Assembly: GCA_023379025.1 (NCBI GenBank)
Contig: JAMCTH010000009.1
Location: 69,092 to 133,091, forward strand
Direction: 5' to 3'
Length of the DNA stretch: 64,000 nt
Origin: Patescibacteria group bacterium
GTDB lineage: Bacteria; Patescibacteriota; Microgenomatia; UBA10105; UBA927
Shown: in pieces, positions 24,237-58,152 of the stretch
How the letters are laid out: each line of letters opens with the position of its first letter
Position numbering within the stretch: the stretch's first letter is position 1
The notes under the pieces: generated by a model
Databases searched by the model: none
The model's input: only the letters and a program-made list of their open reading frames with translations
Told to the model about the DNA's origin: nothing
Translations under genes and position numbers: made by a program

Positions 24237-24788
24237 TTAAAAAATTCCTTCCAGACAAAAAATATTTAGCTTCTCTGCTTTTTGTGCCTTCTCACAAAGC
24301 GGACGCAAATCACAGTGTCGGCAGAGTGAATCATGAAGATCGTCTTTATGGACACCCAGTGTTCCCCGTTTCTGGTGAAGATCAAATAAAAGTTTCAAAT
24401 ATTTTCCTTCTGCTATCCTTGGAATCTCATCTCTGCGTTCATATCCGTACCATTCGTACAGCCGTTTATCGCCCTTACTCAAATTGCAATGTTTGCATAC
24501 CCGTATGGCGTTTTCCGGCGTATCTGGGCCATTGTGTTTTTTTGGAAGTATATGCTCTGTGGTTAGTTCGATTTGCTTTTCGCAATAGATACACTCATCC
24601 AAATGTTCCCGCTCCTTTTCCCATTCACGGAGTGTTGTAGACCATTCTATCTCGCCATCCCGCAATGCGAGAAACCGGTTCATCTGAAATCCTCGCCCCT
24701 GATTCCCGATGCAGGCGGATTTGGATATCAGCTTAGCATACTGCCAATAAATCGTATCCCGAATCGTTTGTGCGATAGGCGGAGGCAT
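24237..24788 (-). CDS. HNH endonuclease
   Basis: 183 aa; CIYCEKQ...EHILPKKHNGPDTPENAIRVCKHCNLSKG is a classic HNH/His-Me finger with a CxxC...CxxC zinc site. Low-GC DNA. Confidence 0.8.
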   Translation of the reverse strand: MPPPIAQTIRDTIYWQYAKLISKSACIGNQGRGFQMNRFLALRDGEIEWSTTLREWEKEREHLDECIYCEKQIELTTEHILPKKHNGPDTPENAIRVCKHCNLSKGDKRLYEWYGYERRDEIPRIAEGKYLKLLFDLHQKRGTLGVHKDDLHDSLCRHCDLRPLCEKAQKAEKLNIFCLEGIF

Positions 24789-24794
24789 AAGTAA

Positions 24795-25025
24795 CTAAAT
24801 TTTCCCTTGTTTCCTTCTATTTTTATGAATACGAACATGCTTGCCTATACTGATGACTCGTACATTTCGTTTTGTAGTTTTCCCACCTAGCGCTACTGGT
24901 TTAACATGGTGCGCTATGTTCCCCTTAGGCGCTCTTCCTTTCGGATAACCCTTTGCCTTCAAAACTCTTTTAAGTTTACCGGGGTTCCGCCCCTTCCTTA
25001 TCTGAGTCTTAGTTGGTTTTCTCAT
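24795..25025 (-). CDS. 76-aa highly basic mini-protein with HNH-like core (HH-x-P-x-ALGG...N...H..IH)
   Basis: MRKPTKTQIRKGRNPGKLKR... then IAHHVKPVALGGKTTKRNVRVISIGKHVRIH. Overlaps the hsdS stop by 17 nt and lies 6 nt from the HNH gene. Confidence 0.45.
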   Translation of the reverse strand: MRKPTKTQIRKGRNPGKLKRVLKAKGYPKGRAPKGNIAHHVKPVALGGKTTKRNVRVISIGKHVRIHKNRRKQGKI

Positions 25026-26391
25026 TTTCCTGGCCTCCCTTCTCTATCATCTCTTCAACTTTGCGTTTTGCTTCCTCCAATAATTCCTTCGATTTCTTCC
25101 GTGCCTCGTGCGACTGACGTACCAAGTCTGCAATTTTTTGTTGAGTGGATTCCGCCAAAACGGGAATAAGCATATTATCAATTGATTCTTGCGGGACTGC
25201 GGTCAAAATAGTTCCTGCGCATCGTTTTTTTAATTGCTTTTGCATTATCAAACTTCTGGCCATCACCAATAATACCTCCGGTAATACTTCATCACTTCGA
25301 AATTGAAAAAATCCTGTCGATGCAATATATCCATCTTGTTCTTCGTCGATAAGTGCGACTTTTTCTAACGATCCTTCGACGCTGGAAACGATAACATCAC
25401 CGGCTTTCAATAATCGTTTCGCTCTGCCCGGCGCCTCCTTACCCGATACTTCCTCATATCCATCAACAACGCCAATTGATGCATTTATGTTTGCAAGCTC
25501 GACGTACTTAAATGTCTCATCCGGTTTCTCGCCTGGTTTAAAATTTGCAGGTACGTCAAAAATAGTTTTCTTTAATGTTTTCGCTCCCCGCTTTTTTAAT
25601 TCTGACTCTAATACTTCATATTTCGGTTGAAAATAATCCGCATCTATCCTATTCGTTTTTGTAGAATCAGAAAAATTAATGACGTAACTCAAGTCATCGG
25701 AAAATTGTAAATTTTTTAACTCTAGCTCATCCAACAGCAAATTTTCTGCATCTGCATAGCTTTTTTTTGAGACATCAGTCATTCTAAGTGATTCTTTATA
25801 TAACGACTCAACCTCTTTGACTTCATTCTCTAAAAACGTAGGGATCAATATTGTTTTTGTTTGCCAAAGAAAAATATGTTGTTGAACGCTTCCTACTGGC
25901 AATCGTAACACCTGTTTTTTCCCATACTTCGAATTTAGAAACATAGCAATCATTAGGGCCGAATAGTTTGGTTTTAACGAAATCTTCACAATGTCTTGAT
26001 TGGAATTTAGCTTTTGCGGAATATTGAGAGCCATTGCGGCATTTCCAACAGATCCAGACATTGCCAATAAAACCTGTCCCTCATAAACGCGGGATTTCTT
26101 TAATATTTCATCAGATCTATTATCAATAAATTTAACGTCGTTATAATCTATATAACCTTCCTTAATATTATTGGCTTCAATAAATGGAATCCCATCTTCG
26201 ACCCATTCAATGTAATTTGTTAAGTCGTATGCACCAAAACTAATTAAGCTTTCAGATATATCCTCAAGTGTTTGATGGGGTATAGATTGGAGTTTTTTTG
26301 CTATCTCTAAATATTCCGGCTGGTAATATTCAGAGTCTATCCGTTGCGCCCCTTCAAGTTGAGATTTTTTAATAATTGAATATGTGGTCAT
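25009..26391 (-). CDS. hsdS: type I restriction-modification specificity subunit HsdS (two TRDs)
   Basis: 460 aa; N-terminal ...RIDSEYYQPEY, duplicated TRD architecture with a central conserved region; 4-bp ATGA overlap with the upstream gene. Confidence 0.85.
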   Translation of the reverse strand: MTTYSIIKKSQLEGAQRIDSEYYQPEYLEIAKKLQSIPHQTLEDISESLISFGAYDLTNYIEWVEDGIPFIEANNIKEGYIDYNDVKFIDNRSDEILKKSRVYEGQVLLAMSGSVGNAAMALNIPQKLNSNQDIVKISLKPNYSALMIAMFLNSKYGKKQVLRLPVGSVQQHIFLWQTKTILIPTFLENEVKEVESLYKESLRMTDVSKKSYADAENLLLDELELKNLQFSDDLSYVINFSDSTKTNRIDADYFQPKYEVLESELKKRGAKTLKKTIFDVPANFKPGEKPDETFKYVELANINASIGVVDGYEEVSGKEAPGRAKRLLKAGDVIVSSVEGSLEKVALIDEEQDGYIASTGFFQFRSDEVLPEVLLVMARSLIMQKQLKKRCAGTILTAVPQESIDNMLIPVLAESTQQKIADLVRQSHEARKKSKELLEEAKRKVEEMIEKGGQENEKTN

Positions 26392-26969
26392 AACGTCTTA
26401 TTCGGAAAGTTGAGAAATTCGATATATGAAAGAAATGCCTTTCCCTTATCGGTAATTAAATAGTGATCATTCCTCGAATGGATTAACCCTGCATCAAAAA
26501 GGAATTTTAAATAGAAATCGAAAGTCCAATTTTTTAATAGAGGAAATATATTTTGAGTGAAAACAAAAAATAATATTGTATCTTTTGATTGTTCGCCGTT
26601 TCTAGTCTCTTGCGCTCTTAATCTCTTTAGCAATTCTATTTGGCTTCCAAAAATAAACCGATAGATTCTTTCAAAATCTAAATATATTTGTGTGTAGCTT
26701 AAATCTTTTTTAATTTTTTCTATCTCTGATGTTTTAGGATTATTTTCTGCTAATTTCTCATACTGCGGAGGGGGTGATAAATTCACTCTAGTTCCGCCCG
26801 GTAAATCTGCGCTTTGAATCCGATTCAATAAATTTTTAATCTCTTGGTTAAATTTTATAATTAAAAATATAACTATAGAAGGCCAAATCAATACCTTTAC
26901 ATATTCAAGGATCAAAACCCAATCTATTCGCGAAACTGACCGTATGGTAGTTGACGTTGTTGCTATCAT
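26388..26969 (-). CDS. hypothetical membrane-anchored protein embedded between hsdM and hsdS
   Basis: 193 aa; one N-terminal TM helix (WVLILEYVKVLIWPSIVIFLIIKF) and a soluble C-terminal domain with winged-helix-like LLKRL...GLI...YLITDKGKAFLSYI. No recognised family. Translationally coupled on both sides. Confidence 0.55.
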   Translation of the reverse strand: MIATTSTTIRSVSRIDWVLILEYVKVLIWPSIVIFLIIKFNQEIKNLLNRIQSADLPGGTRVNLSPPPQYEKLAENNPKTSEIEKIKKDLSYTQIYLDFERIYRFIFGSQIELLKRLRAQETRNGEQSKDTILFFVFTQNIFPLLKNWTFDFYLKFLFDAGLIHSRNDHYLITDKGKAFLSYIEFLNFPNKTL

Positions 26970-26971
26970 CT

Positions 26972-28912
26972 CTACCTCCGAAAACTAAATTTCTGCTCTT
27001 TCGCAAATTCGATAAATTTATCTGCTATCTCATCCAAATCGTGGTCGAGGACTTTGCGACCGCGGGAATCGTACACATAGTTTCCCGAGGAATCTTTTTT
27101 ATAGACGTATTCGCCGGAGTTATCTTTGCCGCCGCGCTTGGAGACCGCCATAAAAATGGGATAATCGGCAAGCGGCTCACTCTCCCATTTTTGCAAAAAC
27201 AATACTGATGTCTTGGTTCCCGTGTGCGGTTTAAACGTATTTCCGTGCAGCCCGACGACGGCGAGAATACGCGCCTTGTCAAACAGCCACTGCCGGATAT
27301 ATTCCATATTGGTATTGTTAAATACTCCCTGCGGCAACACAATGGCGATTCTGCCGCCGGGTTTAACGAATTCAAGCACCCGCTCGATAAAGAGAACGTG
27401 CCGCTCTACCGTATTCACCAGCTTTCCGTTTTTCTTTCCGAACTCGTACTGACGGAGTAACCCAGGATCTTTGAGCTCACCCGCAAACGGCGGATTCGTA
27501 AGCACGAGGTCAAACGAAAAATTTTTAAACGTCTTTTCATTTTCTTCCTGCTCGCCGTAATCCTGACATTTCAAAAGCCGTTGACGTAGCTCCCGCCGCG
27601 CCTGCAATTTTTCGTCGTCTTCCCCCTGCCATTCGCGCGGATCAAGCGAGTTGAGCTTAAACAAATGCGACCGTCCATCACCTGCTATTAGCATAAGAGC
27701 GCGTGAAACTTTCGCCGTTTCATCGGCAAAATCAATGCCGTACAAATATTGTTTTGAATATTCCTGTTTCGCGTGTTCAGTCGATAAATACTGTTCTTTC
27801 ACCCAATTCATTGCACCAATAAGGAATCCTCCGGAGCCGGCCGCGGGATCCAACACATACTCGCCCGATTTCGGATTGAGCATTTTGACTGCCATCGCGA
27901 TGACATGGCGCGGGGTAAAATATTGCCCCTTCTTCCCCTTGGCCACTTCCGGAATCAGATATTCAAACGCTTCGTCGATGATAGATAAATCAGCGCCGAA
28001 AAGCCTAGCGGTTTCCATTTCTCCCACAACCACGGACAAATGCTCGGGAGACAATCGGATGAGTTCCTGTTCATAAAACGTCCCGGGCCATTTATATATT
28101 GCCTTTCGGAATAAATCGTTGATCGCCGTATACGTTTTTGCGGGATCTTTATATTTACGGAAATAGATTTCATTATCCGGCCGGCTTTCTGCTTCCATTT
28201 CGTCGTACAGCTTTGCGTAAATGAGTTTGAATACCTCGTTAAATACATCAACGCCGGCATTGGCGAGCACCAATTCCTCCATGATCTCTATCGCCCGCTT
28301 CAAATCAAATTTTGGATTGGTATCGCCAAGTGTCTTTTTTTCGCTCAATAAATCATCAATGGTTTTGTTGGCAGATGGAATATCCGGAAGCGTATCTTCA
28401 AATTGATTCGGATAATTCCGATACAAGATCACGCGGTCAATCCCATTTGACCATACGCCGATTTCGCATCCTTCCGCGTTTAAATAACTCTTGAGTTGAT
28501 CAATACCTTTTTCCTCCGTTGGGCTTTTTACTTCGACAATGATATACGGCGTCACCTTGTCGGTTTTGTACACAACAATATCCGCCGCCTTTTTATGGAT
28601 TTCCCGCCCGAAATGAATGCTTTTTTCCGTCTCCAACCGGTCATATGGATACCCAAGAAGCGCATGAAGCTTGTGAAGCCACAACTGCCGCACAATTTCT
28701 TCCGGACGACCGAGTTTTTTCTGTTCGTCGTATACTACGCGTGGATTTCCCGTTTTGAGATCTTTGATAAAAAACTTTTTTTCTTCTTCCCAGATGTAGA
28801 GTACCGAGTTGATATCAATACCCTCAAATTCCTTTAACCCATAGACGATGGAGGCATCTTTAAAAATTCTGTCAATAATTTCTCCGGCTTTATTCGGTTT
28901 TATGGTTGGCAT
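26972..28912 (-). CDS. hsdM: type I RM N6-adenine DNA methyltransferase HsdM with N-terminal HsdR_N-like PD-(D/E)xK domain
   Basis: 646 aa; motif I VLDPAAGSGGFL, motif IV TNPPFAG. N-terminal 150 aa contain ADIVVY...IIVEVKSP (D...ExK), resembling the N-terminal nuclease-fold domain of HsdR. Confidence 0.85.
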   Translation of the reverse strand: MPTIKPNKAGEIIDRIFKDASIVYGLKEFEGIDINSVLYIWEEEKKFFIKDLKTGNPRVVYDEQKKLGRPEEIVRQLWLHKLHALLGYPYDRLETEKSIHFGREIHKKAADIVVYKTDKVTPYIIVEVKSPTEEKGIDQLKSYLNAEGCEIGVWSNGIDRVILYRNYPNQFEDTLPDIPSANKTIDDLLSEKKTLGDTNPKFDLKRAIEIMEELVLANAGVDVFNEVFKLIYAKLYDEMEAESRPDNEIYFRKYKDPAKTYTAINDLFRKAIYKWPGTFYEQELIRLSPEHLSVVVGEMETARLFGADLSIIDEAFEYLIPEVAKGKKGQYFTPRHVIAMAVKMLNPKSGEYVLDPAAGSGGFLIGAMNWVKEQYLSTEHAKQEYSKQYLYGIDFADETAKVSRALMLIAGDGRSHLFKLNSLDPREWQGEDDEKLQARRELRQRLLKCQDYGEQEENEKTFKNFSFDLVLTNPPFAGELKDPGLLRQYEFGKKNGKLVNTVERHVLFIERVLEFVKPGGRIAIVLPQGVFNNTNMEYIRQWLFDKARILAVVGLHGNTFKPHTGTKTSVLFLQKWESEPLADYPIFMAVSKRGGKDNSGEYVYKKDSSGNYVYDSRGRKVLDHDLDEIADKFIEFAKEQKFSFRR

Positions 28913-28913
28913 A

Positions 28914-29552
28914 TTAGCTTACAGTCCTCCACTGTCCGGCTTTCAGGATGGAAATGACTTTTCCCTTCATTTCGACCAAGCTGGTAAAAAATATTGGCGG
29001 ATAATTCGGATTTTCCGGCTTCAAATAATGATACGGAGGCTTATCTTGGGAAATAAATCGCTTGATCGTTGATTCCTCGCCGATCTGTGCATACACAATA
29101 TCACCGGAGGCGAATTCTTTTTGACTTTTCACCAACACGTTGTCGCCATCATTAATACCCGCATTGATCATCGAATCTCCAGAAATCTTCAGGAGAAAAA
29201 CTTCGGCATCTAGCTTCGAAATATCTTTTGAAACCGGCTTCCAGTCTCCGTCGATAACGATTGATTGAAGTGGTGCCCCTGCATGACTCACGCCTAAAAA
29301 AGGAACAAGCGGATCTCTGCCTAAGGCTTCATATCCGTATGGCAATATCGCAAGACTGCGCGCTGCGGATCCATTGCGCTTGATGATCCGTTTTTGTGCT
29401 AATTTCCCGAGAAGATCTATCACTGACTGATTCGAAGAAACGCCGAGGCGCTCCCGCATTTCTTCAAACGTCGGCGGGTACCCCGTATCTTTTATATAAT
29501 CGTAGAGGATAGACAACATTTCCAATTGACGCTTCGTTAACGGCAGATTCAT
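28914..29552 (-). CDS. lexA: LexA-like repressor (N-terminal wHTH plus C-terminal S24 self-cleaving peptidase)
   Basis: 212 aa. N-terminus LTKRQLEMLSILYDYIKDTGYPPTFEEMRERLGVSS...IIKR aligns with the LexA DNA-binding domain. C-terminus GDSMINAGINDGD...TIKRF carries the Ser/Lys dyad. Stop lies 1 nt before the hsdM start. Encoded in low-GC island DNA. Confidence 0.8.
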   Translation of the reverse strand: MNLPLTKRQLEMLSILYDYIKDTGYPPTFEEMRERLGVSSNQSVIDLLGKLAQKRIIKRNGSAARSLAILPYGYEALGRDPLVPFLGVSHAGAPLQSIVIDGDWKPVSKDISKLDAEVFLLKISGDSMINAGINDGDNVLVKSQKEFASGDIVYAQIGEESTIKRFISQDKPPYHYLKPENPNYPPIFFTSLVEMKGKVISILKAGQWRTVS

Positions 29553-29700
29553 AATACTGCCATACTACCCGACTAAATATTCTGGGTCAACTGGAAATCT
29601 ATATATCAAATAGCATCATTATCCATAAAACCCTGCGGGTATAAAAGCGCGATCAGAAATACCTAAATGTAAAGTGTCTCGGGCCGAAAGTTTATTCGAT

Positions 29701-31407
29701 TTATGACAATTTCCCCAAAAAATCGTTTATCTTTTGTTCTATTGCCGAACGACGGTATGCGAGAAATTCTTGAAAATTATCCATCTCCCAAAGCCGTTTA
29801 TCTGCCGGAATAAGTTGGGACGTAAGCGCTGTCTCACCGCGTTTTGGAATAATTTCATTTGTAAAGTAATCGATTGGCTCTCTGTCTAGTATGTGCCTGT
29901 TCGTTTTCCCTCCGATAAATGCAAGGTTAGCAATTTCGTTTATATCCTTGGAGTCAATGTTCCGTTTGGTTAGCTGGGCTTTAGGAAATATATGATGCCA
30001 TTGAATTTTATGCGTATCCCCTAGCGTTTTATCCGAAAGCTGCAGCCCAGTCAGCCAATCCTTTGCGCCATTTGCCTTTAGTACAAAATACAGCATGGTA
30101 AATATAGGACTAACTGTCGTCTTACCCGCAAGCTCGCCGGGTTCAAGTTCAAATCGCCGTACGTGCTCCTTGAGCTTGGCAATCAAATCATCGAGCGTAC
30201 CTCCACGAAACAATACTGCTAAATCCGCATCCAAAATAGATTCCGAAGATCCCATTCCATAGTGTCCGCGTATGTGAGCCAGGAAAAACCATCGCAACAG
30301 CTTCTTTTCCTCATCCATGCTCAATTGCTCATTGTGAAGGTACGCAAAAACGGCGATTGGAACGACAAGCATGGGTGACGATAAATATTCCAGATTGTCA
30401 ATTCCAGCGTTTTTCCGAAGGAAGTTCACGGCAAACCGCAGGCTGTTTTGAGCAATATCCCATGCTTCCGCCAACTTTTCTTTGGAATACCGACCAATGG
30501 TCTTGAATTTGCTTTGTTTTGTCGCAAACACGGTCATGAAGCGCACGAGTAACCAATCAAACACATAATCTGAATCGTCCCCAAATGTCTCAGCAAAGTC
30601 ATCCATGAGATTCATAAATCCGCGCCATTTGGCTGTGATTTGTGCTAATGCCAGATCAGAACCCCGTAGTTTCACCCCAAGTGAATTTACGCGGACAAAT
30701 ATCTCCGTTACCTCCTCATACGACATTTCGCTCTCGAGGAGTTGTATGTCATACATATATTTTTCAATATCTTTTACTTTCTGCAGCCGATCGGAGTAAC
30801 GGAGGTAGTTGGGGTCCTCAAACGAGGTGACGCCCGCGCGCTTGAGAATTTCCGCATGGTTTTTATTGAATATATCCGATACGGATACCCATGTGGGTAT
30901 GTTTTTCAGCGCCCGGGACGTAACTACAAACGTCCGTTTTTTCAGTTCCTCCTGGATATCCCGGTCATCACCGTCATTTTCCATTTGTTCGTCAATATCA
31001 GCGGTTTCCGCTTCTTCATCCACTTCCAGGACTTCTATTGGCGGCCCTTCCGGATGCTCAAGATTAAAAAGGATTTCAATGGGCCGTTTTCTGTTCCTCA
31101 CAATAATCGGTTGCCCGGTTAATATTGCGGCAAGCGAGGTGATTCTCTGTTGGCCGTCCAACAACAACCATCTGCTGAGCGGTAAATTCGGTTTCGTGGC
31201 ATCCACGGACAAGCCGTGCGTTACCACATTTTCGGACGTTTGCCACACTAAAATACTTCCGGAAGGATAATTGCGATACAGGGAATCAAGGAGGTCGCGG
31301 ACCCGAGTTGCAGTCCACACGTATTTGCGCTGCATCTCCGGAAGCTGTAGCTCATCGTTCTGAACTTTATTAACCAAATCCCGAACGGAAATATCGCTTT
31401 TCTGCAT
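29701..31407 (-). CDS. GmrSD-family type IV (modification-dependent) restriction endonuclease, DUF262-DUF1524
   Basis: 568 aa. N-terminal ParB-like DUF262 with (L)LDGQQRITSL motif; C-terminal DUF1524 His-Me finger QWHHIFPKAQL...N...N. Confidence 0.8.
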   Translation of the reverse strand: MQKSDISVRDLVNKVQNDELQLPEMQRKYVWTATRVRDLLDSLYRNYPSGSILVWQTSENVVTHGLSVDATKPNLPLSRWLLLDGQQRITSLAAILTGQPIIVRNRKRPIEILFNLEHPEGPPIEVLEVDEEAETADIDEQMENDGDDRDIQEELKKRTFVVTSRALKNIPTWVSVSDIFNKNHAEILKRAGVTSFEDPNYLRYSDRLQKVKDIEKYMYDIQLLESEMSYEEVTEIFVRVNSLGVKLRGSDLALAQITAKWRGFMNLMDDFAETFGDDSDYVFDWLLVRFMTVFATKQSKFKTIGRYSKEKLAEAWDIAQNSLRFAVNFLRKNAGIDNLEYLSSPMLVVPIAVFAYLHNEQLSMDEEKKLLRWFFLAHIRGHYGMGSSESILDADLAVLFRGGTLDDLIAKLKEHVRRFELEPGELAGKTTVSPIFTMLYFVLKANGAKDWLTGLQLSDKTLGDTHKIQWHHIFPKAQLTKRNIDSKDINEIANLAFIGGKTNRHILDREPIDYFTNEIIPKRGETALTSQLIPADKRLWEMDNFQEFLAYRRSAIEQKINDFLGKLS

Positions 31408-31470
31408 ACTTCTGCCCTATTTTACACCCACCCCGCCCTTTTCGCGATGATAACAAATTTAAAAATCTCA

Positions 31471-32658
31471 TTACCTTTTATTCACTCGGTGGCGCGCTAT
31501 GCGGTAGCTGTCATCAAATAATTCGTAATAATCGCCGTAGATATATTTTTGTCCGTATACCGCAGTTCCGAGCGGCTCAAGTATATCCAGACGCATAAGG
31601 CGTTCGATCACGTTATATGCGCCCGGCGCCGTAAAACCTGTCCATTTCATAATTTCCGCGACTCCCACAATCGGCTGGCCAAACAGTTTCCGAACGAGCC
31701 CTAAGGTTAATGCTGCAGATTTTTTGCCGAGCATTTGCATTTTTGCAAAATCGCGGTCACGAAGTGCTGTAATCCGGGCACAGGTTTCTATAGACGATTC
31801 CGCTGTTTCCGCAACCCCATCCAAAAAAAACTCCAACCATCCGTCAACATCAGATTCGTCATCGTGATATGTTTGCAACTTCTCATAATAAAGCTTGCGG
31901 TACTTTTTAAAGTAACCCGACAGATAGAGAACCGGCAATTCCAAAAGCTTCGCATGCTGCATGTACATCGCGACCAGCATACGGCCCGTACGTCCGTTTC
32001 CGTCCGTGAACGGATGAATCGTCTCAAATTGTGCATGGATGAGTCCGGCTTTCACAAGCGACGGGTACTCATCTTCGGCATGCATAAACAATTCCAAGTC
32101 TTGAAGACTTGCGACCATATCTTCTGGCGCAGGCGGCACAAAAGATGCATCCATCGGCGTCTTGCCTCCGATCCAATTTTGACTCCTCCGGAATTCACCC
32201 GGGTACGCATGCTGCGTTGCCCGTGCGCCAGTCATGAGTTTCTTATGCAGCTCCCGGATCAAACGAAGAGAAATCGGTAATATTTCCGATCTCTTCATAC
32301 CGTAATTCATTGCCTCCACGTAGTGGATAATGTCATCCACGTCCGGCTCCAAACGCGATTTTTCTTCGGTCACTGGCGCTGCCACGGCATCTTGCAGTGT
32401 TGCTCTAGTCCCTTCGATTTGGCTGGAATAGGTAGCGTCTTTTTTGACAAACATCAAAAGAAAAAAATCTTTGTCCGGCAGTAACCGGGTGATGCCGTCC
32501 AGCTTGCCGACCAAACGGATCGCACGTTCATGTTTTTTATGGAGGAACGCTCGTATAGGGAATCCGCTCTTCGGTGGGAACGGGAAGGGCGTAAACGACG
32601 AGTATCCGTCTTTCTGTGCTATATACCGACCAATGCGTGGTTTGTTTATATTGCTCAT
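31471..32658 (-). CDS. Fic family protein (AMPylase-type; Fic_N plus Fic plus C-terminal wHTH)
   Basis: 395 aa; canonical Fic motif HPFTDGNGRTGR. Confidence 0.85.
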   Translation of the reverse strand: MSNINKPRIGRYIAQKDGYSSFTPFPFPPKSGFPIRAFLHKKHERAIRLVGKLDGITRLLPDKDFFLLMFVKKDATYSSQIEGTRATLQDAVAAPVTEEKSRLEPDVDDIIHYVEAMNYGMKRSEILPISLRLIRELHKKLMTGARATQHAYPGEFRRSQNWIGGKTPMDASFVPPAPEDMVASLQDLELFMHAEDEYPSLVKAGLIHAQFETIHPFTDGNGRTGRMLVAMYMQHAKLLELPVLYLSGYFKKYRKLYYEKLQTYHDDESDVDGWLEFFLDGVAETAESSIETCARITALRDRDFAKMQMLGKKSAALTLGLVRKLFGQPIVGVAEIMKWTGFTAPGAYNVIERLMRLDILEPLGTAVYGQKYIYGDYYELFDDSYRIARHRVNKR

Positions 32659-32699
32659 ACGAATATAAACATATTATACTATTTTGTTTATATTTGCAA
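32643..32699 (-). promoter_or_regulatory. sigma70-like promoter (TTGCAA-N15-TATAAT) with three TGTTTATAT/ATATAAACA half-sites straddling the fic start codon; candidate operator
   Basis: TGTTTATAT at 32643-32651, ATATAAACA at 32663-32671, TGTTTATAT at 32685-32693. -35 TTGCAA at 32694-32699 and -10 TATAAT (minus strand) at 32673-32678. Confidence 0.4.
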
Positions 32700-33767
32700 C
32701 ACCAATGTAAACGAACCGTGTAACCCTTTTCTATCCCCGGAGTGGGGAAAAATAGTTTCTGACACATGTAATTGCACCGTCCGGAACATATTTCCGCGAC
32801 CATCCCTCTTCACTCAATTTTGTCAATTTATCGTGAATTTGGCTAAAAAATCGGCGGTATTCACGTTATTTCATCGTCATTGCGCCGTAGACCAATCCTA
32901 TGGGAATCACAAAGATGCAGAGGGGGCTACCGGTCCGCCCACGATAAACCCGACTGCTACGATTCCGTCCCATCAACCCTCTCTCCCCCGTTGACAAAAC
33001 GCGCGCAGAAATCCCGATGCTTCAGATCACTGTTTGCACCGAAAGCACCCGGAGTGGAAGAGTGGAAAACGAAACGATGTCAGAAACAAACACCATCACC
33101 CGCAAACTCGTCCGGATCCGCAAGACCATCGGACACCTCCGCATACCGCCTGCATCGTTTTATGTCATCGCCTGCAGTCACCAAACGCTCCGCATCCTGG
33201 AGCGCACCGGTGATACCACGAAACTCCACACCCATGTGCTCCGTCATATGGCGGCGCCGGAACAGATTACACGTCTCGTCCGTTCGGCCATTGCCGGAAC
33301 CGACACAAAACCCCTCGCCGCGGCCTATGCCGGACCGCGCTCCGGATTGTTCCATACGGTTGCGTCCCTCTTGTGGTTTGGGGATGACGTCATTCCGGCC
33401 GTCATCTTCCCCGAACACAAAGGTCGAGGGAACGGACACGCCCTTCAGGAACTGGTCCCGGACGGCCCGGATGTTTTCCGATACCCACGACCTCCTTCAG
33501 ACGCTTTCGCCCGACAACGAAGTAGCGGTCCGGCCGCTCGTGACCATCGGGGGCTATCGCGACACTACTTCGGAGGACGGCATGAGTACGCTTCTAAACC
33601 TCGCTTCCCGCGTCAAAAAGATACGCATACTCTTCATCAGTGCAACTCCTCGGTGAGGCGGGGTTGCCCTCATGCGGCATGCCCTCATCCCCAAGCAGGA
33701 AATTTTGAAATCACCAAAACCAAATTCTTCAACGTCCTCCAGGGAATAAACGGTCCTGACATCGTCC

Positions 33768-42505: not shown

Positions 42506-42991
42506 TTATTTCACCGCAATACATTCCTCATCTTCTCCCGGCGGTTGCCAATATTCTACATAACTATCAAACGTCTCTCCGCTTATTTCAAATGAATCTC
42601 TAGGCGGATTTTTACTTCTGGAGATCACCCGCTCCCTCATTTTCTCCATCGAACATGCGACGTAATACAGAATCGGCTTTGCGCCTATTTCATATATTTT
42701 TTTCTTTATATCGTCTCTTTGTGACTTAACCCAAAAACCTTCGTCCAGTATCACATCTTTACCTGCTTTTAGGATTTTGAATGCTGTCTCTGTTGCGAGA
42801 TCAGTAATTTTATTGTCATAGGCTGCAAAATTCTTATCTGCGGTTATCTTGTTTCCGAAAATTTTGATTATCCATTCGTCTTTGGTTATACGTACGGCTC
42901 CTGTTTCTTCCTCCAGTTTCCTGGCAACCGTCGTCTTCCCCGAACCGATGAACCCGCAGATAAGATAAGCAATAGGCTGTTTCTTATTCAT
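42506..42991 (-). CDS. P-loop NTPase / predicted small-molecule or polynucleotide kinase (AAA_33-like)
   Basis: Walker A ICGFIGSGKTT at the N-terminus, 161 aa; low-GC DNA. Confidence 0.55.
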   Translation of the reverse strand: MNKKQPIAYLICGFIGSGKTTVARKLEEETGAVRITKDEWIIKIFGNKITADKNFAAYDNKITDLATETAFKILKAGKDVILDEGFWVKSQRDDIKKKIYEIGAKPILYYVACSMEKMRERVISRSKNPPRDSFEISGETFDSYVEYWQPPGEDEECIAVK

Positions 42992-43135
42992 GAGTCAATT
43001 ATATCAGAAGGATCGAACTGTCCAGCGAAGGGTCCTTGAGGCTAAAATAGCTAACTTCCCCTAAACGACCCATCCATCAACGAAAGAGTGGAGTTCGGAC
43101 ACAGACTTGGACTAAGAAAGATACTTGCGGAGAGC

Positions 43136-44236
43136 TTAAACTTTAAAATATGCGAAAACCTCGTTCATCGCTTCAAATCCTCGCTTTATATTCCTTTGTA
43201 GTCCTGGTGAGTTGTGGACAGTGGCCATTTTCACTCGTAATTTCAGTTTTGAGACTAAGTATCTGAGTTTGAAGATCTGAAACTTATTATTGAAATTAGT
43301 GGGGAACGTATTTGTGAGAGAATAGCCTTCTTTAAACCATGTCATTCTGGGCTCCCCAAAAAACAGGCTGTATGCAGAAAATTCCATGACGGGATCACCT
43401 GAAATGCACTCATCCCAGTCAACAATACCTGTTATATGCTTCCCATCTGACAGCGTATTCCAGTCTGCAACGTCGTTATGGATTAAAGCTGGTTCATCGC
43501 AATTGATGAGATCTGCGTTTTTATTAAGGAGTGCCAATATCTTTTCTTGCTGTGAATGAGTGATCTTATGGTCATTATCAAGGTATTCAAGGTCTTCATG
43601 AAGCGAGGCAAAAAAATGCTCACGGAGAGAATTGTACTGTCCTTCCAACGTGCCTTTGCTCTTTGCTATTTTATTGTCAAAAAAACCGAAACCCCTTGTT
43701 TTCACCCGATGAATCAGGCCGATTTGTCGACCCGTTTCCCTAATTAGTTGTTCTTCATAAGCGTATTTGATTTCACCTGAATGGGTAAAATTTCGCATTG
43801 TTTCTCCCGGCAAAGCTTCCATGATTATGAAATCAAAATCAAATTTTTTCCTGTCATTGACGATGATATACGTTGAATAAGTAAGAACCCCGTACGCTTT
43901 TGCCTTTTCTGCAGCGACTTTTTCAACCCAAAAATATCCATTTTTTACATCTTTTGGATGCATTCTGATTACTATATTTGTACCATCCGCCAATTTTGCT
44001 TTCAGAACGTTATTAACCAAACCATCGGTTATCAACTCTCCAACCTGAACTACTTTAGCATCCTGAGGCTTTTTCCCTGTTTTAATCATTCCATATTCAA
44101 TTGCTGGTACTGCATCACTCTTATCAAAACTTTCAGATCGATCTAAGAAGATTTTTTTCATGTCTTCGGCAGAAATATTACGGTTAGTCTGCCAATAAAA
44201 CATATTGTGGCGGTTTGAAAGGTCAAGAATAGGCAT
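43136..44236 (-). CDS. aminoglycoside phosphotransferase (APH) / choline-kinase-like family kinase
   Basis: Brenner motif LIHNDVADWN and downstream IVDWDE; 366 aa; low-GC DNA. Confidence 0.7.
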   Translation of the reverse strand: MPILDLSNRHNMFYWQTNRNISAEDMKKIFLDRSESFDKSDAVPAIEYGMIKTGKKPQDAKVVQVGELITDGLVNNVLKAKLADGTNIVIRMHPKDVKNGYFWVEKVAAEKAKAYGVLTYSTYIIVNDRKKFDFDFIIMEALPGETMRNFTHSGEIKYAYEEQLIRETGRQIGLIHRVKTRGFGFFDNKIAKSKGTLEGQYNSLREHFFASLHEDLEYLDNDHKITHSQQEKILALLNKNADLINCDEPALIHNDVADWNTLSDGKHITGIVDWDECISGDPVMEFSAYSLFFGEPRMTWFKEGYSLTNTFPTNFNNKFQIFKLRYLVSKLKLRVKMATVHNSPGLQRNIKRGFEAMNEVFAYFKV

Positions 44237-44457
44237 GGAGGAATTATATCAAATCCCTGAAATTGAACTTATAGATTATCTTAACTATATTTTTAGATTG
44301 TTTTCATGCCCTAGATCAAAATTTGCTCGAGAAATGGGCTTCGCAAAGCTAAGCTTTGATTTTCTATGGCGCGTTTTGACAATCTAACATTTTAGCTCGC
44401 TTACTGGGACGATTTTAGAGCGGTGGATTGCTCCCCGTTCTTGACCTAACTCGAACT

Positions 44458-44694
44458 TTAGCCATCCTTTTTCTTCCAGGGTAGTTTATCCTTTTCATGC
44501 TTTTTGGTTATTCTTCTGTCTAGATAATTAAAATATGATGGTAGTAAAAAGAAAGTAAGAACAAATCCAAGTATTACTACCCCTTTAACGTCAAGAAAAC
44601 TAGCAAAAAATACTAATAAGGTAATCGCGAAAAAAGAGAATTTCAACGGATCACTGTAAATATTATCTATGAAATTATTGAAGATACTTTTCAT
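44458..44694 (-). CDS. small membrane protein, hypothetical
   Basis: 78 aa, two hydrophobic helices. Confidence 0.35.
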   Translation of the reverse strand: MKSIFNNFIDNIYSDPLKFSFFAITLLVFFASFLDVKGVVILGFVLTFFLLPSYFNYLDRRITKKHEKDKLPWKKKDG

Positions 44695-44729
44695 AAAACT
44701 ATTAATTTGTTGCTATTTAATGTATATAA

Positions 44730-45320
44730 TTAAAGTGATGGTTTTATAACTTCACTTGGAAGTCCATACATATCCTTCGTTGATACTTCAGTACAAACCA
44801 AATCAAATATACTTGTTCCGTTGTTTTCATCCCTAACCTGATAGTACCTTCTATCTTGACCAGCATAAACTGGCTCAAATATTACTACATTACTATTTAC
44901 GCTAATATCACCTAAATGATAACCACCCTCACCTTTACTAAAGGCAATTATATTTCCACTAGTCACGTCAATTACTGCATAGCCAAAACAATCTGTACCA
45001 CACCCCCAAGAAACAAAAGTATAGTGTCCAGCGAAATTAACTCCCTTTGCAACGACCTCTTTAATTCTTGTATCAAATGTTTTTGCTTCGGGAAAATTGG
45101 AAAAATTGACCGGACTAGGACTTCCTTCAAATTTCGGCCGTGTATTTAATTGATTTTTTGCTAATTGCTCCTTACATGTCCCTGCAGTAGAAGTTTTTGT
45201 AATACTTTTACCCACACCAATATCTTTCTGTTTAACTTTTATGTAGCCTGATAAGGCTATCCCAGTCAAACATAAAACACTAATAGAAATTAATAATTTA
45301 CGATTAATTTTCCTTCTCAT
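44730..45320 (-). CDS. secreted/lipoprotein-like hypothetical protein
   Basis: N-terminal signal-like LLISISVLCLTGIALSG; Cys-containing mature domain; no known family. Confidence 0.45.
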   Translation of the reverse strand: MRRKINRKLLISISVLCLTGIALSGYIKVKQKDIGVGKSITKTSTAGTCKEQLAKNQLNTRPKFEGSPSPVNFSNFPEAKTFDTRIKEVVAKGVNFAGHYTFVSWGCGTDCFGYAVIDVTSGNIIAFSKGEGGYHLGDISVNSNVVIFEPVYAGQDRRYYQVRDENNGTSIFDLVCTEVSTKDMYGLPSEVIKPSL

Positions 45321-45513
45321 CTACTACTCCCAAAGAACTGAAAGAGCTTAAAAGTAAAAATCAGTAAATTCTGAACCAATAATTCCAATACTTAGCATTT
45401 TCAGTTTCATAGGAAATATAATAAAAAGCACCAGTAAAACCAAGCTCCGTAATCCTAGTATTAATCTGACTGAAAGTCTAGCACAAGTTATCAAGGCTTT
45501 CCAAAATCCGATT

Positions 45514-46285
45514 ACACACCCCCGGGGTGTGGGCAGACCTACCCAATGTCGTGATATAAATGTGATTCAAGAAATAGGAACCGCTGATATTCTGCCTGAT
45601 CAAACGTACTCCTTTGCAGACTCTCCGCATTCCGATAATATCCCATAAGCAATGTTTTATCCAACATCGCCATATCTGCACGTGATGCATATGACGCGAA
45701 CGAACTCCACCGATACTGAATAAGTTCGTTCTGTGAATGCAGGATGCCGGCGCTTAAGGGATTGAGGTGAATGTATCTGGCCACATGTACAAGCTGCTCA
45801 TCCGTTTCTATCCGCACCGCCTTAAACATGGATTGAAACAGAGCTCCAAACCTCTTTGTTTTGATATTAAAGTACTTCGCATACCCATTTTGAATTTGAG
45901 AAACGAATGTGGCTATTCCTCCATTTCTCAGTTGAGTAAGAAGCATATGAAAATGATTTGGCATCCAGCAAAATGCGAGTATATTCACCAACTTCAGATG
46001 CTGGTGTGCAAACTGTTCGAAGTAGTGTTGTTTTGCAGCCAAGGATAGCCTGTTATATTCAGAGAAACGTACCGGAGGATGTTCAAAGCGATAATACTCG
46101 GCAAGATCTAAAAAACGCTGGTAATCACGACTATTAATGAAAATTATCTGATTCGCGACGCTGCGATTAAAAATATGATACGTCTCTGACGTTTGACAAG
46201 GAACATAACGATATGGCATCACGCATACTATACGCCCCTCAATTAGAATATTCAGTAAGATGACCCACACCCCGGGGGTGTGGGT
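45514..46285 (-). mobile_element. IS200/RAYT-like element: HUH-Y1 transposase gene flanked by CACACCCC-GGGGTGTG hairpin palindromes
   Basis: Imperfect palindromes at 45514-45533 (ACACACCCCCGGGGTGTGGG) and 46265-46285 (CCCACACCCCGGGGGTGTGGG) bracket the transposase ORF. The element abuts the 3' end of tRNA-Asn. Confidence 0.6.
45539..46219 (-). CDS. IS200/RAYT-family tyrosine (HUH/Y1) transposase
   Basis: HUH motif MPNHFHMLL and catalytic Tyr region VARYIHLNP. Start placed at the Met after the upstream hairpin; the ORF track extends to 46315 through the palindrome. Confidence 0.7.
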   Translation of the reverse strand: MPYRYVPCQTSETYHIFNRSVANQIIFINSRDYQRFLDLAEYYRFEHPPVRFSEYNRLSLAAKQHYFEQFAHQHLKLVNILAFCWMPNHFHMLLTQLRNGGIATFVSQIQNGYAKYFNIKTKRFGALFQSMFKAVRIETDEQLVHVARYIHLNPLSAGILHSQNELIQYRWSSFASYASRADMAMLDKTLLMGYYRNAESLQRSTFDQAEYQRFLFLESHLYHDIG

Positions 46286-46322
46286 GGACACAATAAGAAG
46301 GCATAATTGTTTCAAAACTCAG

Positions 46323-46394
46323 CTCCCCCGGCTGGATTCGAACCAGCAACCTTCTTCTTAACAGGAAGCCGCTCTACCGTTGAGCTACAGGGGA
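46323..46394 (-). tRNA. tRNA-Asn(GTT)
   Basis: Manual cloverleaf: TCCCCTG-TA-GCTC-AACGGTA-GAGC-G-GCTTC-CTGTTAA-GAAGA-AGGTT-GCTGG-TTCGAAT-CCAGC-CGGGGGA-G, 72 nt. U1-A72 and G73 as in E. coli tRNA-Asn. CCA not encoded. Confidence 0.85.
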
Positions 46395-55616: not shown

Positions 55617-55707
55617 TGGCGGAGAGGGCGGGATTCGAACCCGCGATCACCTTGCGGCGATATGCGCCCTCCAAGCGCACGCACTAGACCAACTATGCGA
55701 CCTCTCC
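55617..55707 (-). tRNA. tRNA-Ser(GGA), CCA encoded
   Basis: GGAGAGG-TC-GCA...TGC-G-TGCGC-TTGGAGG-GCGCA- long variable arm -GCGGG-TTCGAAT-CCCGC-CCTCTCC-G-CCA; type II tRNA with a 3-bp D stem. Confidence 0.85.
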
Positions 55708-55751
55708 AATAAGCCTGATTATACCATCTCTCCGGCATCACCGATGCTATA

Positions 55752-56678
55752 ATGAGCTGTATGTCCCTCCGTACCAAAGCTCTTCTTGCCGTCTTTGCCG
55801 CGGCACTTCTCTGGTCCGGGGCAAACTCGGTCGGGAAAATCCTCGTGACCCATACTAATCCGTTCGTCATCGCGTTCTACCGCTTTACTCTGGCTTCTCT
55901 CATCATCCTTCCCTGGTTTTGGAAAGCCAAAAAGCCCAAAAACTTTGCGTTCCGCCTCTTGCCGCTTGGCATATTCAACGGCGGAAATATCCTTTTTTTC
56001 TATTCAGGCCTCGCGCGGACGACCGCAAATACCTCATCCATCCTCGGCGCGACCGTACCGATCGTGACACTACTCCTCTCCGCCCTCATCATTCACGAAA
56101 CGATCACCGGGAAACGGATTCTCGGAGTGCTCATAGGACTTCTCGGCGCCCTCTTTATCATCATTCTGCCGGAATTGAAACACGGAGCGCCAATCTATGG
56201 AAATTTCTCCGGAAACATCCTGCTTCTCGGAAGCATCCTGAGCTGGACGCTCTATATTATTTCCTCACGGAAAATACTTTCAAAAGATACTTTTGATCCA
56301 GTTCTTGCGCTTGCCATGAACTTCTTTGTGACTTCTGCCATGACCGGACTTGCCGCTCTTCTCACCCATCAGTCGTTTCTGGTGCCGGCATTTTCCGATG
56401 GGAACTATATAGTAGTCTTTCTTTATGCCGTCCTCGGTATCACTATTACGACGTTTTTCCTTTTCCAATGGGCGGTCCAGTATCTTTCGGCAACTACCGT
56501 ATCGCTTAAAGAGTATTTGCAGCTGGTCATTGGAATCGGACTCAATATCCTTATCCTCGGCGAACGGATGACCGTGGAATACGTCCTTGGCAGCATCCTG
56601 GTCGTCATCGGACTCATCGTCGCAACCGGATTGTACACGCCGCACGAGACACTCCGGAAAACCATGGGACGGCAGTAG
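55752..56678 (+). CDS. EamA/DMT family transporter
   Basis: 308 aa, 10 TM helices, duplicated EamA halves. Confidence 0.75.
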   Translation: MSCMSLRTKALLAVFAAALLWSGANSVGKILVTHTNPFVIAFYRFTLASLIILPWFWKAKKPKNFAFRLLPLGIFNGGNILFFYSGLARTTANTSSILGATVPIVTLLLSALIIHETITGKRILGVLIGLLGALFIIILPELKHGAPIYGNFSGNILLLGSILSWTLYIISSRKILSKDTFDPVLALAMNFFVTSAMTGLAALLTHQSFLVPAFSDGNYIVVFLYAVLGITITTFFLFQWAVQYLSATTVSLKEYLQLVIGIGLNILILGERMTVEYVLGSILVVIGLIVATGLYTPHETLRKTMGRQ

Positions 56679-56681
56679 GGA

Positions 56682-57254
56682 TTATTTCGCAAATTCCCTG
56701 TGCAGGGTATCACGGAGGTGCTTCCACCATTCATGAGAATCCGTTTCAGCCAGACTTCCGGCCAGTTCAACGGCTTCGGGGATCCGCAGCCGCTTTGCAT
56801 TGGCGTCCAGCCATTCCCGCGCATGCGTGTTTCCTTTTTCTTCCAGAAGCTTGAGTTCTGCCAGAAATGCGATGACGTTGGCCTCATACACAATCTTGGC
56901 CTCCCGGGTTTCCTGCTTCTCATACGTATTGAGTGTAGCGAGGAGTTCGTCATCCACTCCGGCAAAAATATCGCGGTTTGCTTTGTCCTGATCGCGCGTC
57001 ATATAGAAATGCGCGATTTTGTCAAGGTCGCCGGTCCTGGCTTCATGGAAATCATGAAATACGGCCATGGTCAGAACGGTCTCCAGATGTGCGCCGAGTT
57101 CCTTCCCTAAAAAATATGCGATGACCGCGGTCATAAACGAGTGCTCGCCCACCCCTTCTTCGTTATCCCCAAGGATCTGCCAGCCGGTCCGTTTGAGACG
57201 TTTGACGACCGCTGCCTCATAGATAATATTGGTCACGTGTTTGAGTATTTTCAT
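56682..57254 (-). CDS. HD-domain phosphohydrolase (YfbR-like 5'-deoxynucleotidase type)
   Basis: ...GEHSFMTAVIAYFL...VFHDFHEARTGDL matches the HD motif arrangement of YfbR-type nucleotidases. Confidence 0.65.
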   Translation of the reverse strand: MKILKHVTNIIYEAAVVKRLKRTGWQILGDNEEGVGEHSFMTAVIAYFLGKELGAHLETVLTMAVFHDFHEARTGDLDKIAHFYMTRDQDKANRDIFAGVDDELLATLNTYEKQETREAKIVYEANVIAFLAELKLLEEKGNTHAREWLDANAKRLRIPEAVELAGSLAETDSHEWWKHLRDTLHREFAK

Positions 57255-57283
57255 ACATTCAGGATCACGAACATTTTTCGATG

Positions 57284-57356
57284 CGCTCCCTGGCAGACTT
57301 GAACTGCCATATCAGCCTCCGGAGGGCCGCGCTCTATCCAGTTAAGCTAAGGGAGC
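57284..57356 (-). tRNA. tRNA-Arg(CCG)
   Basis: GCTCCCT-TA-GCTT-AACTGGATA-GAGC-G-CGGCC-CTCCGGA-GGCTG-ATAT-GGCAG-TTCAAGT-CTGCC-AGGGAGC-G; 73 nt; no CCA. Confidence 0.85.
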
Positions 57357-57372
57357 ATTCATCCCGGGCTCA

Positions 57373-57807
57373 TTATACCGCAGCGCGGGTTTCTGCGGCT
57401 ATTGTAGTCAGATCCCCGTCGAGGATAACGGGCTGCATGGCGTGCATTTCAGTGAGGTAATCCATTTTCGGAACAGGATACAACAGGAAAATTTTTTTAC
57501 CGAGCCAAAAGGCAATACCCATTTCGAGAAACGTGTTGCCGCCGATATACCCGGCTATTCCATTTTTTTCGTAATTAAGGACCACGATGGCATCGGCTCC
57601 CTGTATGGCCCGGAAGTGTTCACGGATAAAATCGTGCTCGATTTTAACGTTGATCTTTTCTTCGTCCGTCGTCATATACGATTCGTTCAGTTCATCGTGA
57701 TACGCGCCGGAAGGTATGACGACGAGGTGTCCGGCCTTTTCGAGTGTAGCCTTGGCCGCAATCATCTCCCTATGAAACTGCATACTGCCGCAGATCGTGA
57801 TATTCAT
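57373..57807 (-). CDS. nucleoside 2-deoxyribosyltransferase-like protein
   Basis: MNITICGSMQF...AGHLVVIPS...DAIVVLNYEKNGIAGYIGGNTFLEMGIAFWLGKKIF matches the PF05014-type fold with the conserved Glu in ...FLEMG. Start trimmed so as not to run through tRNA-Ser(CGA). AGGAG RBS upstream of the chosen ATG. Confidence 0.6.
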   Translation of the reverse strand: MNITICGSMQFHREMIAAKATLEKAGHLVVIPSGAYHDELNESYMTTDEEKINVKIEHDFIREHFRAIQGADAIVVLNYEKNGIAGYIGGNTFLEMGIAFWLGKKIFLLYPVPKMDYLTEMHAMQPVILDGDLTTIAAETRAAV

Positions 57808-57941
57808 AATTATTACTCCTCTTTCCGGTAGACAACCGTTGTGACAAATTACGCACACTACAGATAACACAACCTGCCTGCCGGAAGACCGGGATTCGTC
57901 TCGCACTCTTCGGTAGCGGCGGGATCTGCCCCGTAACAGCG

Positions 57942-58027: not shown

Positions 58028-58152
58028 GCGCTTGTACGGGATTCGAGATCAGCCAATAAAACCGCTCTTGCACACCTCCCGAATCAATTAAGAATTATTC
58101 CGGGTAAACCACACAGCGTTTACGCAGAAATTTCTTCCGAGAAATTATTCTG

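Follow-up and report, generated by a model that had tools for sequence, protein, structure and literature searches.

Two unrelated HNH genes follow a lexA-headed restriction–modification operon in Patescibacteria, one encoding a predicted minimal colicin-type His-Me finger

Two small HNH-type genes follow the specificity (S) gene of a restriction–modification (R-M) operon in a Patescibacteria genome, and the locus raises the question of whether they are parts of the restriction enzyme. The genes lie in a 64,000-nucleotide stretch of contig JAMCTH010000009.1 (assembly GCA_023379025.1), referred to here as the window; coordinates are positions within this 64-kb window unless another locus (L-number) is named, and the operon and both HNH genes are on the minus strand. 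One gene (24795–25025) encodes a 76-amino-acid (aa) protein, the mini-HNH, and the other (24237–24788) a 183-aa HNH endonuclease with a Cys4 zinc site. The initial annotation of this DNA had proposed two HNH-type genes downstream of S, and both were found. It had also regarded the tiny size of the 76-aa product and its coupling to HsdS as unusual, and had offered three roles for it, namely a nicking subunit, a partner of the larger HNH and a decoy. On the sequence evidence presented below, the mini-HNH and the unrelated 183-aa HNH appear to be optional extras appended to the 3′ end of an operon that is complete without them (lexA-like gene, fused restriction/methylase (M/R) gene, 193-aa gene and S), and not parts of the restriction enzyme.

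The 76-aa protein contains IAHHVKPVALGGKTTKRNVRVISIGKHVRIH, as quoted in the initial annotation, and is extremely basic, with 16 lysines and 10 arginines, no aspartate, glutamate or cysteine, and an isoelectric point (pI) of 12.0. The window copy reaches only 14.9 bits against PF01844 (E 0.03; gathering cut-off 21.4 bits) and gives one weak PHROG HNH match (E 0.002). Because this copy alone misses the Pfam threshold, we base its assignment to HNH on the profile of the family and on the predicted fold. A protein search returned 20 homologues of the same length (51–78% identity), and H39, H40, P43, G48, N54, H63 and H67 are invariant in their alignment. PF01844 is matched by all 20 aligned members (E ≤ 1; best 7.8e-5) and PF21431 (Col-Pyo_DNase) by 17 of them, and two family members already carry the NCBI label ‘HNH endonuclease’. 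Compared with the PDB, the family profile matched the colicin E7/E9 DNase over residues 7–70 (E 4e-5), where the alignment of the colicin to the family consensus reads ELHHEKPIS.NGG..DNISVVTPKRHIDIH, and the HNH domain of Cas8f from type I-F HNH Cascade (E 9e-5).

An AlphaFold2 (AF2) model computed with the alignment (predicted local distance difference test score, pLDDT, 87) consists of two N-terminal helices followed by a strand (36–40), a second strand (55–59) and a helix (60–73), and the beta-beta-alpha-metal fold is present. The best Foldseek matches to this model were Cas8f-HNH domains, with a query-normalised template modelling (TM) score of 0.57–0.62 and a probability of ∼1, followed by colicin E7; HNH domains were the only matches. 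H40, N54, H63 and H67 line up with the colicin motif, that is, with the general-base histidine of the first strand, the structural asparagine and the metal-ligand histidines of the helix. From the profile and Pfam matches together with the predicted fold and its Foldseek matches, we identify the mini-HNH as a minimal His-Me finger of the colicin/pyocin-DNase and Cas8f-HNH type, equivalent to about the C-terminal half of the colicin DNase domain, which bears out the minimal core originally recognized from the motif. In the model, two poly-basic N-terminal helices stand in for the rest of the colicin domain, and neither a helix–turn–helix (HTH) nor a DNA-recognition domain is present. The small size is not unprecedented, as phage HNH proteins of 70–106 aa are among the fold matches, but the mini-HNH appears to be among the smallest DNA-cutting HNH modules that occur as separate proteins. 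No description of this family, or of a LexA–methyltransferase–HNH module, was found in the literature searched.

The 76-aa open reading frame (ORF) is a genuine gene under purifying selection. Its ATG (25023–25025) lies 17 nt inside the S gene, and a Shine–Dalgarno sequence, GGGAGG, can be read directly from the sequence 8 nt upstream of it (25034–25039, minus strand), within the 3′ end of S; the overlap with the S stop and the basic N-terminus had been described correctly. H39, H40, H63 and H67 are invariant in 97 of 97 intact copies and N54 is kept in 96, and the median ratio of nonsynonymous to synonymous substitution rates (dN/dS) is ∼0.2 for unsaturated pairs of copies. Between the window copy and its nearest relatives, synonymous sites are saturated (proportion of synonymous differences 0.8–0.95), with a proportion of nonsynonymous differences of ∼0.2. 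The family is rare, as a profile search of 1.84 billion representative proteins gave 18 matches at E < 1e-10. A genome scan located 43 loci, all in metagenome-assembled genomes (MAGs) from more than 15 phyla, including Patescibacteria, SAR324, Thermotogota, Acidobacteriota, Planctomycetota, Clostridia, Bacteroidota and Gammaproteobacteria, with one archaeal host in Methanomicrobia. A metagenome scan produced 144 further matches, of which 80 were kept, and the pooled scans comprise 133 loci representing 99 distinct contexts. The ORF looks translated and is conserved, as the proposal of the initial annotation required.

Members of one subgroup share 90–96% identical gene DNA between MAGs assigned to different phyla. 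Homology within this subgroup starts ∼40 nt 5′ of the mini-HNH gene and in most pairs stops near its stop codon, and in some pairs it extends into a shared downstream gene. Judged from these alignments, the gene demonstrably moves horizontally between contexts. At four loci (L026, L022, L036 and L027), homology begins exactly at GTTATGT, after attC-like hairpins, which suggests that this subgroup may be carried as integron-type gene cassettes. A strict attC scan gave zero sites, and a relaxed, crude scan gave 30 sites against ∼20 in shuffled controls, which is not clearly above background; the window copy is not at a cassette boundary. The hairpins themselves, which were found by hand and are convincing at a few loci just upstream of the mini-HNH (L026:2490–2549, L022, L027 and L036), are imperfect, span 56–60 nt or more and have RYYYAAC-like and GTTATGT ends, and some of the putative cassettes carry a downstream 143-aa membrane protein and a TIR-like 146-aa protein. 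No relatives were detected in IMG/VR viral contigs, INPHARED phages or PLSDB plasmids, and fold matches in BFVD were weak and generic HNH only; a phage or plasmid origin was rejected on these grounds. An unusual insertion occurs in another Patescibacteria genome (L001:8001–8234, GCA_009772335.1), where the mini-HNH gene sits within the ribosomal-protein cluster, a normally invariant operon, between rplO and secY and is accompanied by genes for sigma-70 region 4, NUDIX, dCMP deaminase and TPR proteins.

The immediate neighbours of the mini-HNH gene vary widely across contexts. An S gene or other target-recognition domain (TRD) gene adjoins it in 2 of 99 contexts (the window and L037) and a 183-aa HNH gene in one, the window itself. 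Genes downstream differ by locus (the 183-aa HNH, a 172-aa unknown, DUF4238, methyltransferases and others); the 172-aa gene that follows the closest Patescibacteria homologue is not homologous to the 183-aa HNH, and PADLOC assigned nothing to most of these downstream genes. No neighbour family is conserved across the 99 contexts that could represent an adjacent immunity gene. What recurs is proximity to methyltransferases and LexA-like repressors. Close to the mini-HNH (within 1 kb), methyltransferase genes occur at 1.14 per 10 kb, compared with at most 0.15 per 10 kb beyond 4 kb (∼8-fold), and this decay with distance serves as an internal control. Of the 51 contexts flanked by 1 kb or more on each side, 23 have a methyltransferase within 3 kb, and the classes represented near the mini-HNH are Eco57I-like type IIG, N6_Mtase with S, C5, N6_N4 and D12. 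A LexA-like gene (LexA_DNA_bind plus S24), just upstream or divergent, is a direct neighbour in 17 of 99 contexts and lies within 1.5 kb in 13 of the 51 well-flanked ones. The association with methyltransferase and LexA-like genes is real, and its best reading is that the mini-HNH preferentially lodges beside methyltransferase or R-M modules and LexA-like repressors. The neighbouring R-M systems are complete in themselves, e.g. a D12 methylase with an AlwI-family endonuclease at L039, type III Mod and Res at L006, and Eco57I-like type IIG enzymes.

Among these loci, we observed genes in which the LexA-like and methyltransferase parts are fused (L046:69–1610(−), L049/50 with L049:1363–2808(−), and L054:795–2258(−), and also L071, L130 and L140). 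The fusion proteins carry an N-terminal LexA DNA-binding domain, an S24 self-cleaving peptidase and a C5 or N6_N4 methyltransferase, and their genes are usually divergent from the mini-HNH gene; no description of such fusions was found in the literature searched. In 8 of 19 LexA-linked loci, the perfect DnaA-box consensus TTATCCACA occurs 17–121 nt upstream of the mini-HNH start. The loci with TTATCCACA between the lexA-like and mini-HNH genes are L029, L050, L054, L071, L075, L102, L104, L125 and L130, except that at L130 it lies just upstream of the lexA-like gene instead. In total, 23 copies were counted in 635 kb against ∼5 expected, and the motif could serve these LexA-like proteins as an operator or be a true DnaA site. 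We also considered the mini-HNH as the toxin of a Panacea (PanA) antitoxin, which was rejected because the HTH–Panacea gene keeps a RelE/ParE-like partner (113–128 aa, assigned by eye from sequence) on whichever side the mini-HNH lies; the main text of the PanA papers does not mention a mini-HNH-like toxin.

The 183-aa protein is a different kind of HNH. It matches PF01844 at 36.9 bits (E 4e-9; cut-off 21.4 bits), and the complete zinc-binding motif first read from its sequence, C66xxC69..H79..N93..C98xxC101-N102, was confirmed. C66, C69, H79, C98, C101 and N102 are invariant in 22 sequences of the family, and the protein has a second, likewise invariant Cys4 cluster (C156, C159, C165 and C178). 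The core matches PDB 4h9d by phmmer (E 2e-4) and IscB and Cas9d at the domain level in NCBIfam, with Cas9 HNH domains as the top Foldseek matches. The helical N-terminal part (∼60 aa) and the C-terminal part with the second Cys4 (∼70 aa) match nothing solved (query-normalised TM ∼0.3). As the two proteins fall into different HNH clades, the tandem represents juxtaposition and not duplication. More than 270 homologues with 55–73% identity were found in DPANN archaea, Methanolacinia, Gracilibacteria and other bacteria of the candidate phyla radiation (CPR), and the family is unusually conserved across DPANN archaea, methanogens and CPR bacteria. The gene is solitary in most contexts examined, for example in Methanolacinia and an Aenigmarchaeota MAG, where it is flanked by unrelated genes, and elsewhere it adjoins HerA-like and SIR2 genes.

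Does the upstream operon need a nuclease from outside? The M/R protein (646 aa; 26972–28912) carries an N-terminal HSDR_N_2 PD..ExK nuclease domain (E 2.6e-22) followed by a gamma-class N6-adenine methyltransferase with N6_Mtase and Eco57I domains, and at least 95% of 120 homologues keep the signature of its nuclease (PEEI, D111, E126-V-K128). The system is therefore a nuclease–methylase fusion with a separate S protein, and not a type I system that has lost HsdR. A PD..ExK nuclease fused to a gamma-class N6A methyltransferase and a separate S subunit with two TRDs (25009–26391) are features of type IIB/IIG R-M, and presumably M/R and S resemble BcgI-like type IIB enzymes. Membership of M and S in the MADS system was rejected on NCBIfam scores, which fall far short of the cut-offs (MAD2, 297 bits against a cut-off of 720; MAD5, 154 bits against 400). 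The M/R family is very common in Patescibacteria, with 7,395 matches at E ≤ 1e-50. The operon begins with the lexA-like repressor (212 aa, LexA_DNA_bind plus Peptidase_S24; 28914–29552), and between M/R and S lies a gene whose 193-aa product has a hydrophobic N-terminus and ends in a winged helix (HTH_45; 26388–26969). From lexA-like to the 183-aa HNH gene, the six packed genes are spaced by 1, 2, −4, −17 and 6 nt, the last gene beginning 6 nt past the mini-HNH stop. The final ∼8 residues of the S protein overlap the mini-HNH start and lie past the point where the alignment to homologous S proteins ends, consistent with an addition of DNA at the 3′ end of S.

Three independent sister contexts, in which M is 74–82% and LexA 63–70% identical, keep the order lexA-like, M/R, S throughout, and in the window and the sister operons the gap between lexA-like and M/R is 1–4 nt or an overlap. 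Both the mini-HNH and the 183-aa HNH are missing from all three by tblastn. One sister (L146:3222–10013) reads recA, lexA, M/R, a 117-aa GIY-YIG gene, a 187-aa gene, S and recX; another (L149:4388–8300) reads lexA, M/R and S with nothing between the latter two; and the third (L152:4259–9424) reads lexA, M/R, a 183-aa PBECR3 gene, a 160-aa gene and S. Between M/R and S, these operons have a hotspot of small, variable genes, with a GIY-YIG nuclease and a 187-aa membrane-like protein in L146 (7020–7373), a PBECR3 nuclease-like protein and a 160-aa protein in L152 (6944–7495), and the 193-aa gene in the window. Ahead of the lexA-like gene, a promoter-like TTGACC-17-TAGTAT (29562–29590, minus strand) lies ∼9 nt before the ATG, and the promoter is conserved among the window, L146 and L149 (TTGACa, AGAaTAaATAGTCGGG, TAgTAT). 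Its spacer in the window, AGAATATTTAGTCGGG, is a candidate operator, and the spacer in L149 is the palindrome GACTAAATAGTC. No Gram-positive-type LexA box (GAAC-N4-GTTC) was seen by eye upstream of the window lexA-like gene, where no pattern search was made. The repressor keeps the Ala-Gly site (HAG), the GDSM serine and the IKRF lysine. In L146, the R-M unit sits between recA–lexA and recX, so that it looks as if restriction were part of the SOS operon. The operon is widespread in Patescibacteria, as are lexA-like genes fused to R-M methyltransferases or coupled with them in translation. These data suggest that restriction is wired into the DNA-damage response in Patescibacteria, and the lexA-coupled R-M operon together with the LexA–methyltransferase fusions is a more novel lead than the mini-HNH itself.

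The explanation we favour, tentatively and at somewhat less than even confidence, is that the mini-HNH is a mobile accessory gene carried by R-M modules, whose product is an auxiliary nuclease made alongside the R-M enzyme once the LexA-like repressor has been inactivated. In such a scheme, the six genes would be co-transcribed from the conserved promoter ahead of lexA, with the mini-HNH translationally coupled to S. Its basic N-terminal helices may bind DNA non-specifically, and the protein may nick or cut DNA independently of sequence, using one histidine-bound metal ion with H40 as the general base. Inactivation of the LexA-like protein would then lead to the mini-HNH being made together with the R-M enzyme, as an auxiliary nuclease rather than as a restriction subunit. 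Several points weigh against this explanation. About half of the well-flanked contexts contain no methyltransferase or LexA-like gene, and some are plainly non-defence, such as the position between rplO and secY at L001. The sister operons lack the mini-HNH, so any contribution to restriction is dispensable. We infer catalysis, co-transcription and LexA control from sequence, the promoter spacer is a candidate operator, and the TTATCCACA motif of other loci does not occur in the window. Furthermore, a cytoplasmic non-specific DNase with no conserved immunity gene should be toxic to its host. Finally, conservation of the histidines could in part be due to a structural metal site instead of catalysis.

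An extension of the same idea, which we regard as improbable, would make the mini-HNH a portable effector in a so far undescribed layer of R-M biology of uncultured lineages. Here, LexA-like repressors that head DNA methyltransferases of every class, or are fused to them, would keep a non-specific colicin-type DNase silent until RecA, activated by DNA damage or by phage, triggers their self-cleavage and the DNase is released along with the R-M enzyme, and the LexA-like domain might be the missing immunity or docking partner. If true, this would amount to a damage-coupled ‘second strike’ or a suicide nuclease. Alternatively, both HNH genes could be purely selfish passengers, homing-endonuclease-like or cassette-borne, that settle at operon junctions, persist by spreading horizontally and have no role in restriction or defence, an explanation that we consider rather unlikely. 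It accounts for the presence/absence polymorphism at equivalent operon positions, including a GIY-YIG gene, a classic free-standing nuclease, in a sister operon, for the solitary occurrence of the 183-aa HNH in unrelated contexts, and for the insertion of the mini-HNH into a ribosomal-protein operon. Near-identical gene DNA in differing contexts with gene-sized homology in most pairs, the homology of one subgroup that starts at GTTATGT after attC-like hairpins, and the ∼8-residue tail of S, as expected from a 3′ insertion, point the same way. However, 76 aa is too small for the sequence-specific recognition domain that homing normally needs, and random insertion does not predict the distance-dependent enrichment of methyltransferase and LexA-like genes. 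The zero matches in IMG/VR, INPHARED and PLSDB and the crude attC count (30 against ∼20 in shuffled sequence) also speak against a selfish origin.

That the mini-HNH could be a trans-acting nuclease or nicking subunit of M–S, or a partner of the 183-aa HNH that gives an HsdR-less system its cleavage activity, now appears very doubtful. Several points favour the idea: the mini-HNH start overlaps the S stop by 17 nt with the 183-aa HNH 6 nt further on, the island that holds these genes has no HsdR gene, an N6_Mtase–S fusion at L037 ends 18 nt before a mini-HNH, an Eco57I-like enzyme precedes another at L024, and Cas8f-HNH shows that such an HNH module can take the place of a dedicated nuclease. 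Yet M already carries a conserved nuclease domain (PD..EVK), so a nicking subunit in trans is not needed, and M/R plus S operons with M 74–82% identical work without either HNH gene. The special coupling to HsdS that the initial annotation had proposed is not borne out, given an S-type neighbour in 2 of 99 contexts and sister operons without the mini-HNH. Nor is partnership with the larger HNH, which is a neighbour in 1 of 99 contexts and belongs to a family that stands alone elsewhere. Moreover, the same mini-HNH (more than 55% identical) lies beside C5, N4/N6-beta, D12 and gamma-class methyltransferases, which makes a single docking partner implausible. Least probable, in our view, is a non-catalytic role, in which the mini-HNH would act as a small, basic regulator that binds DNA, like the C proteins at the head of R genes, or as a decoy, with the HNH fold as a metal-stabilised scaffold. 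It often heads a co-directional block upstream of variable genes, which is the C-protein position, its basicity is extreme (pI 12), and the metal in colicin HNH motifs also stabilises the fold. Against this, H40, which in colicins serves as general base without binding the metal, is invariant in 97 of 97 copies, N54 is kept in 96 of 97, the AF2 model has no HTH, and many mini-HNH loci already have LexA-like or HTH regulators; the invariance of the catalytic histidine makes a decoy unlikely. A P1 Ref-like RecA-dependent nuclease, an idea suggested by the basic N-terminus and the LexA link, was dropped, as no Ref structure was among the sequence or fold matches.

The operon and the two HNH genes form part of a low-GC island (24237–32700) that also holds Fic and GmrSD genes. 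Its GC content is 0.31–0.49 against 0.55–0.60 in the flanks, and both HNH genes are island-like at 0.42–0.44 compared with 0.55–0.59 in the host. The left edge is sharp and coincides with the stop codon of the 183-aa HNH gene, and neither an integrase nor a tRNA was found at the edges (∼24.2–32.7 kb). Within 29701–32658 are a GmrSD-type modification-dependent endonuclease (568 aa; GmrSD_N; PADLOC HEC-05, E 3e-48) and a Fic-domain protein (395 aa). Elsewhere in the window, a second low-GC patch (42506–46394, GC 0.34–0.43) adjoins tRNA-Asn (46322–46394). It holds genes for a 161-aa zeta-toxin/AAA_33-like kinase, a 366-aa phosphotransferase of the APH family, an unknown protein of 196 aa and a 258-aa protein that contains an IS200-like Y1 transposase domain. 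At 55617–60514, four tRNA-Ser and two tRNA-Arg genes form a cluster of six within 5 kb.

For annotation, tandem HNH genes of this kind should not be read as a missing restriction subunit; they are optional cargo, and M has its own nuclease. With 76 aa and zero cysteines, the mini-HNH is near the minimum for a folded HNH nuclease, and the same structural type has been grafted onto Cas8f. If active, it would provide a very compact nuclease or nickase module for fusions and a clean model of the colicin-type active site, free of the rest of the DNase domain and of the immunity protein.

To place both proteins among known systems, we compared them with other small R-M-associated proteins, mobile nucleases and HNH domains. 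The mini-HNH may be likened to C controllers and to Vsr beside Dcm, which are small, methyltransferase-linked and often overlapping or operon-heading. The folds differ, since C proteins are HTH proteins, Vsr is PD-(D/E)xK-like and the mini-HNH is a His-Me finger, and a 5mC-specific, Vsr-like repair role does not fit a protein that accompanies all methyltransferase classes. With free-standing homing endonucleases (HNH and GIY-YIG), it shares a patchy presence at equivalent intergenic slots and near-identical copies elsewhere, but it has no DNA-recognition domain and no target-site evidence. Integron gene cassettes, which reportedly carry defence genes (bioRxiv 10.1101/2024.07.02.601686), are called to mind by the attC-like hairpins ahead of one subgroup, although support for attC sites is weak and no cassette boundary adjoins the window copy. 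The zinc-finger core CxxC..H..N..CxxC of Gmet_0936 (PDB 4h9d) and the Cas9/IscB HNH is shared by the 183-aa protein only, which differs from Cas9/IscB in having neither a RuvC domain nor a guide RNA context.

The closest relatives of the mini-HNH are the DNases of colicins E7/E9 and pyocins S2/AP41 (PF21431), which have the same HH..N..H..H motif; its spacing is 39/40-54-63-67 in the mini-HNH and 102/103-118-127-131 in colicin E9. Like the mini-HNH, which has no cysteine at all, these DNases have no structural Cys4 zinc finger. Only chain residues ∼65–130 of the colicin E7 DNase align, so the mini-HNH does not have the full ∼130-aa domain, nor does it have the receptor-binding and translocation domains or a conserved adjacent immunity gene. 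Colicins are secreted bacteriocins, whereas the mini-HNH is cytoplasmic and chromosomal and occurs in uncultured lineages. The best structural match is the Cas8f HNH of type I-F HNH Cascade (PDB 8ydb, 8w1p and 9siu), an example of so compact an HNH working as a plug-in nuclease. There, the HNH is a covalent domain of a guided effector complex; the mini-HNH is a separate 76-aa protein, for which our analysis identified no targeting partner. The Cas8 HNH domain, for its part, reportedly superposes closely on colicin E9 (2026 structural paper, PMC12848945).

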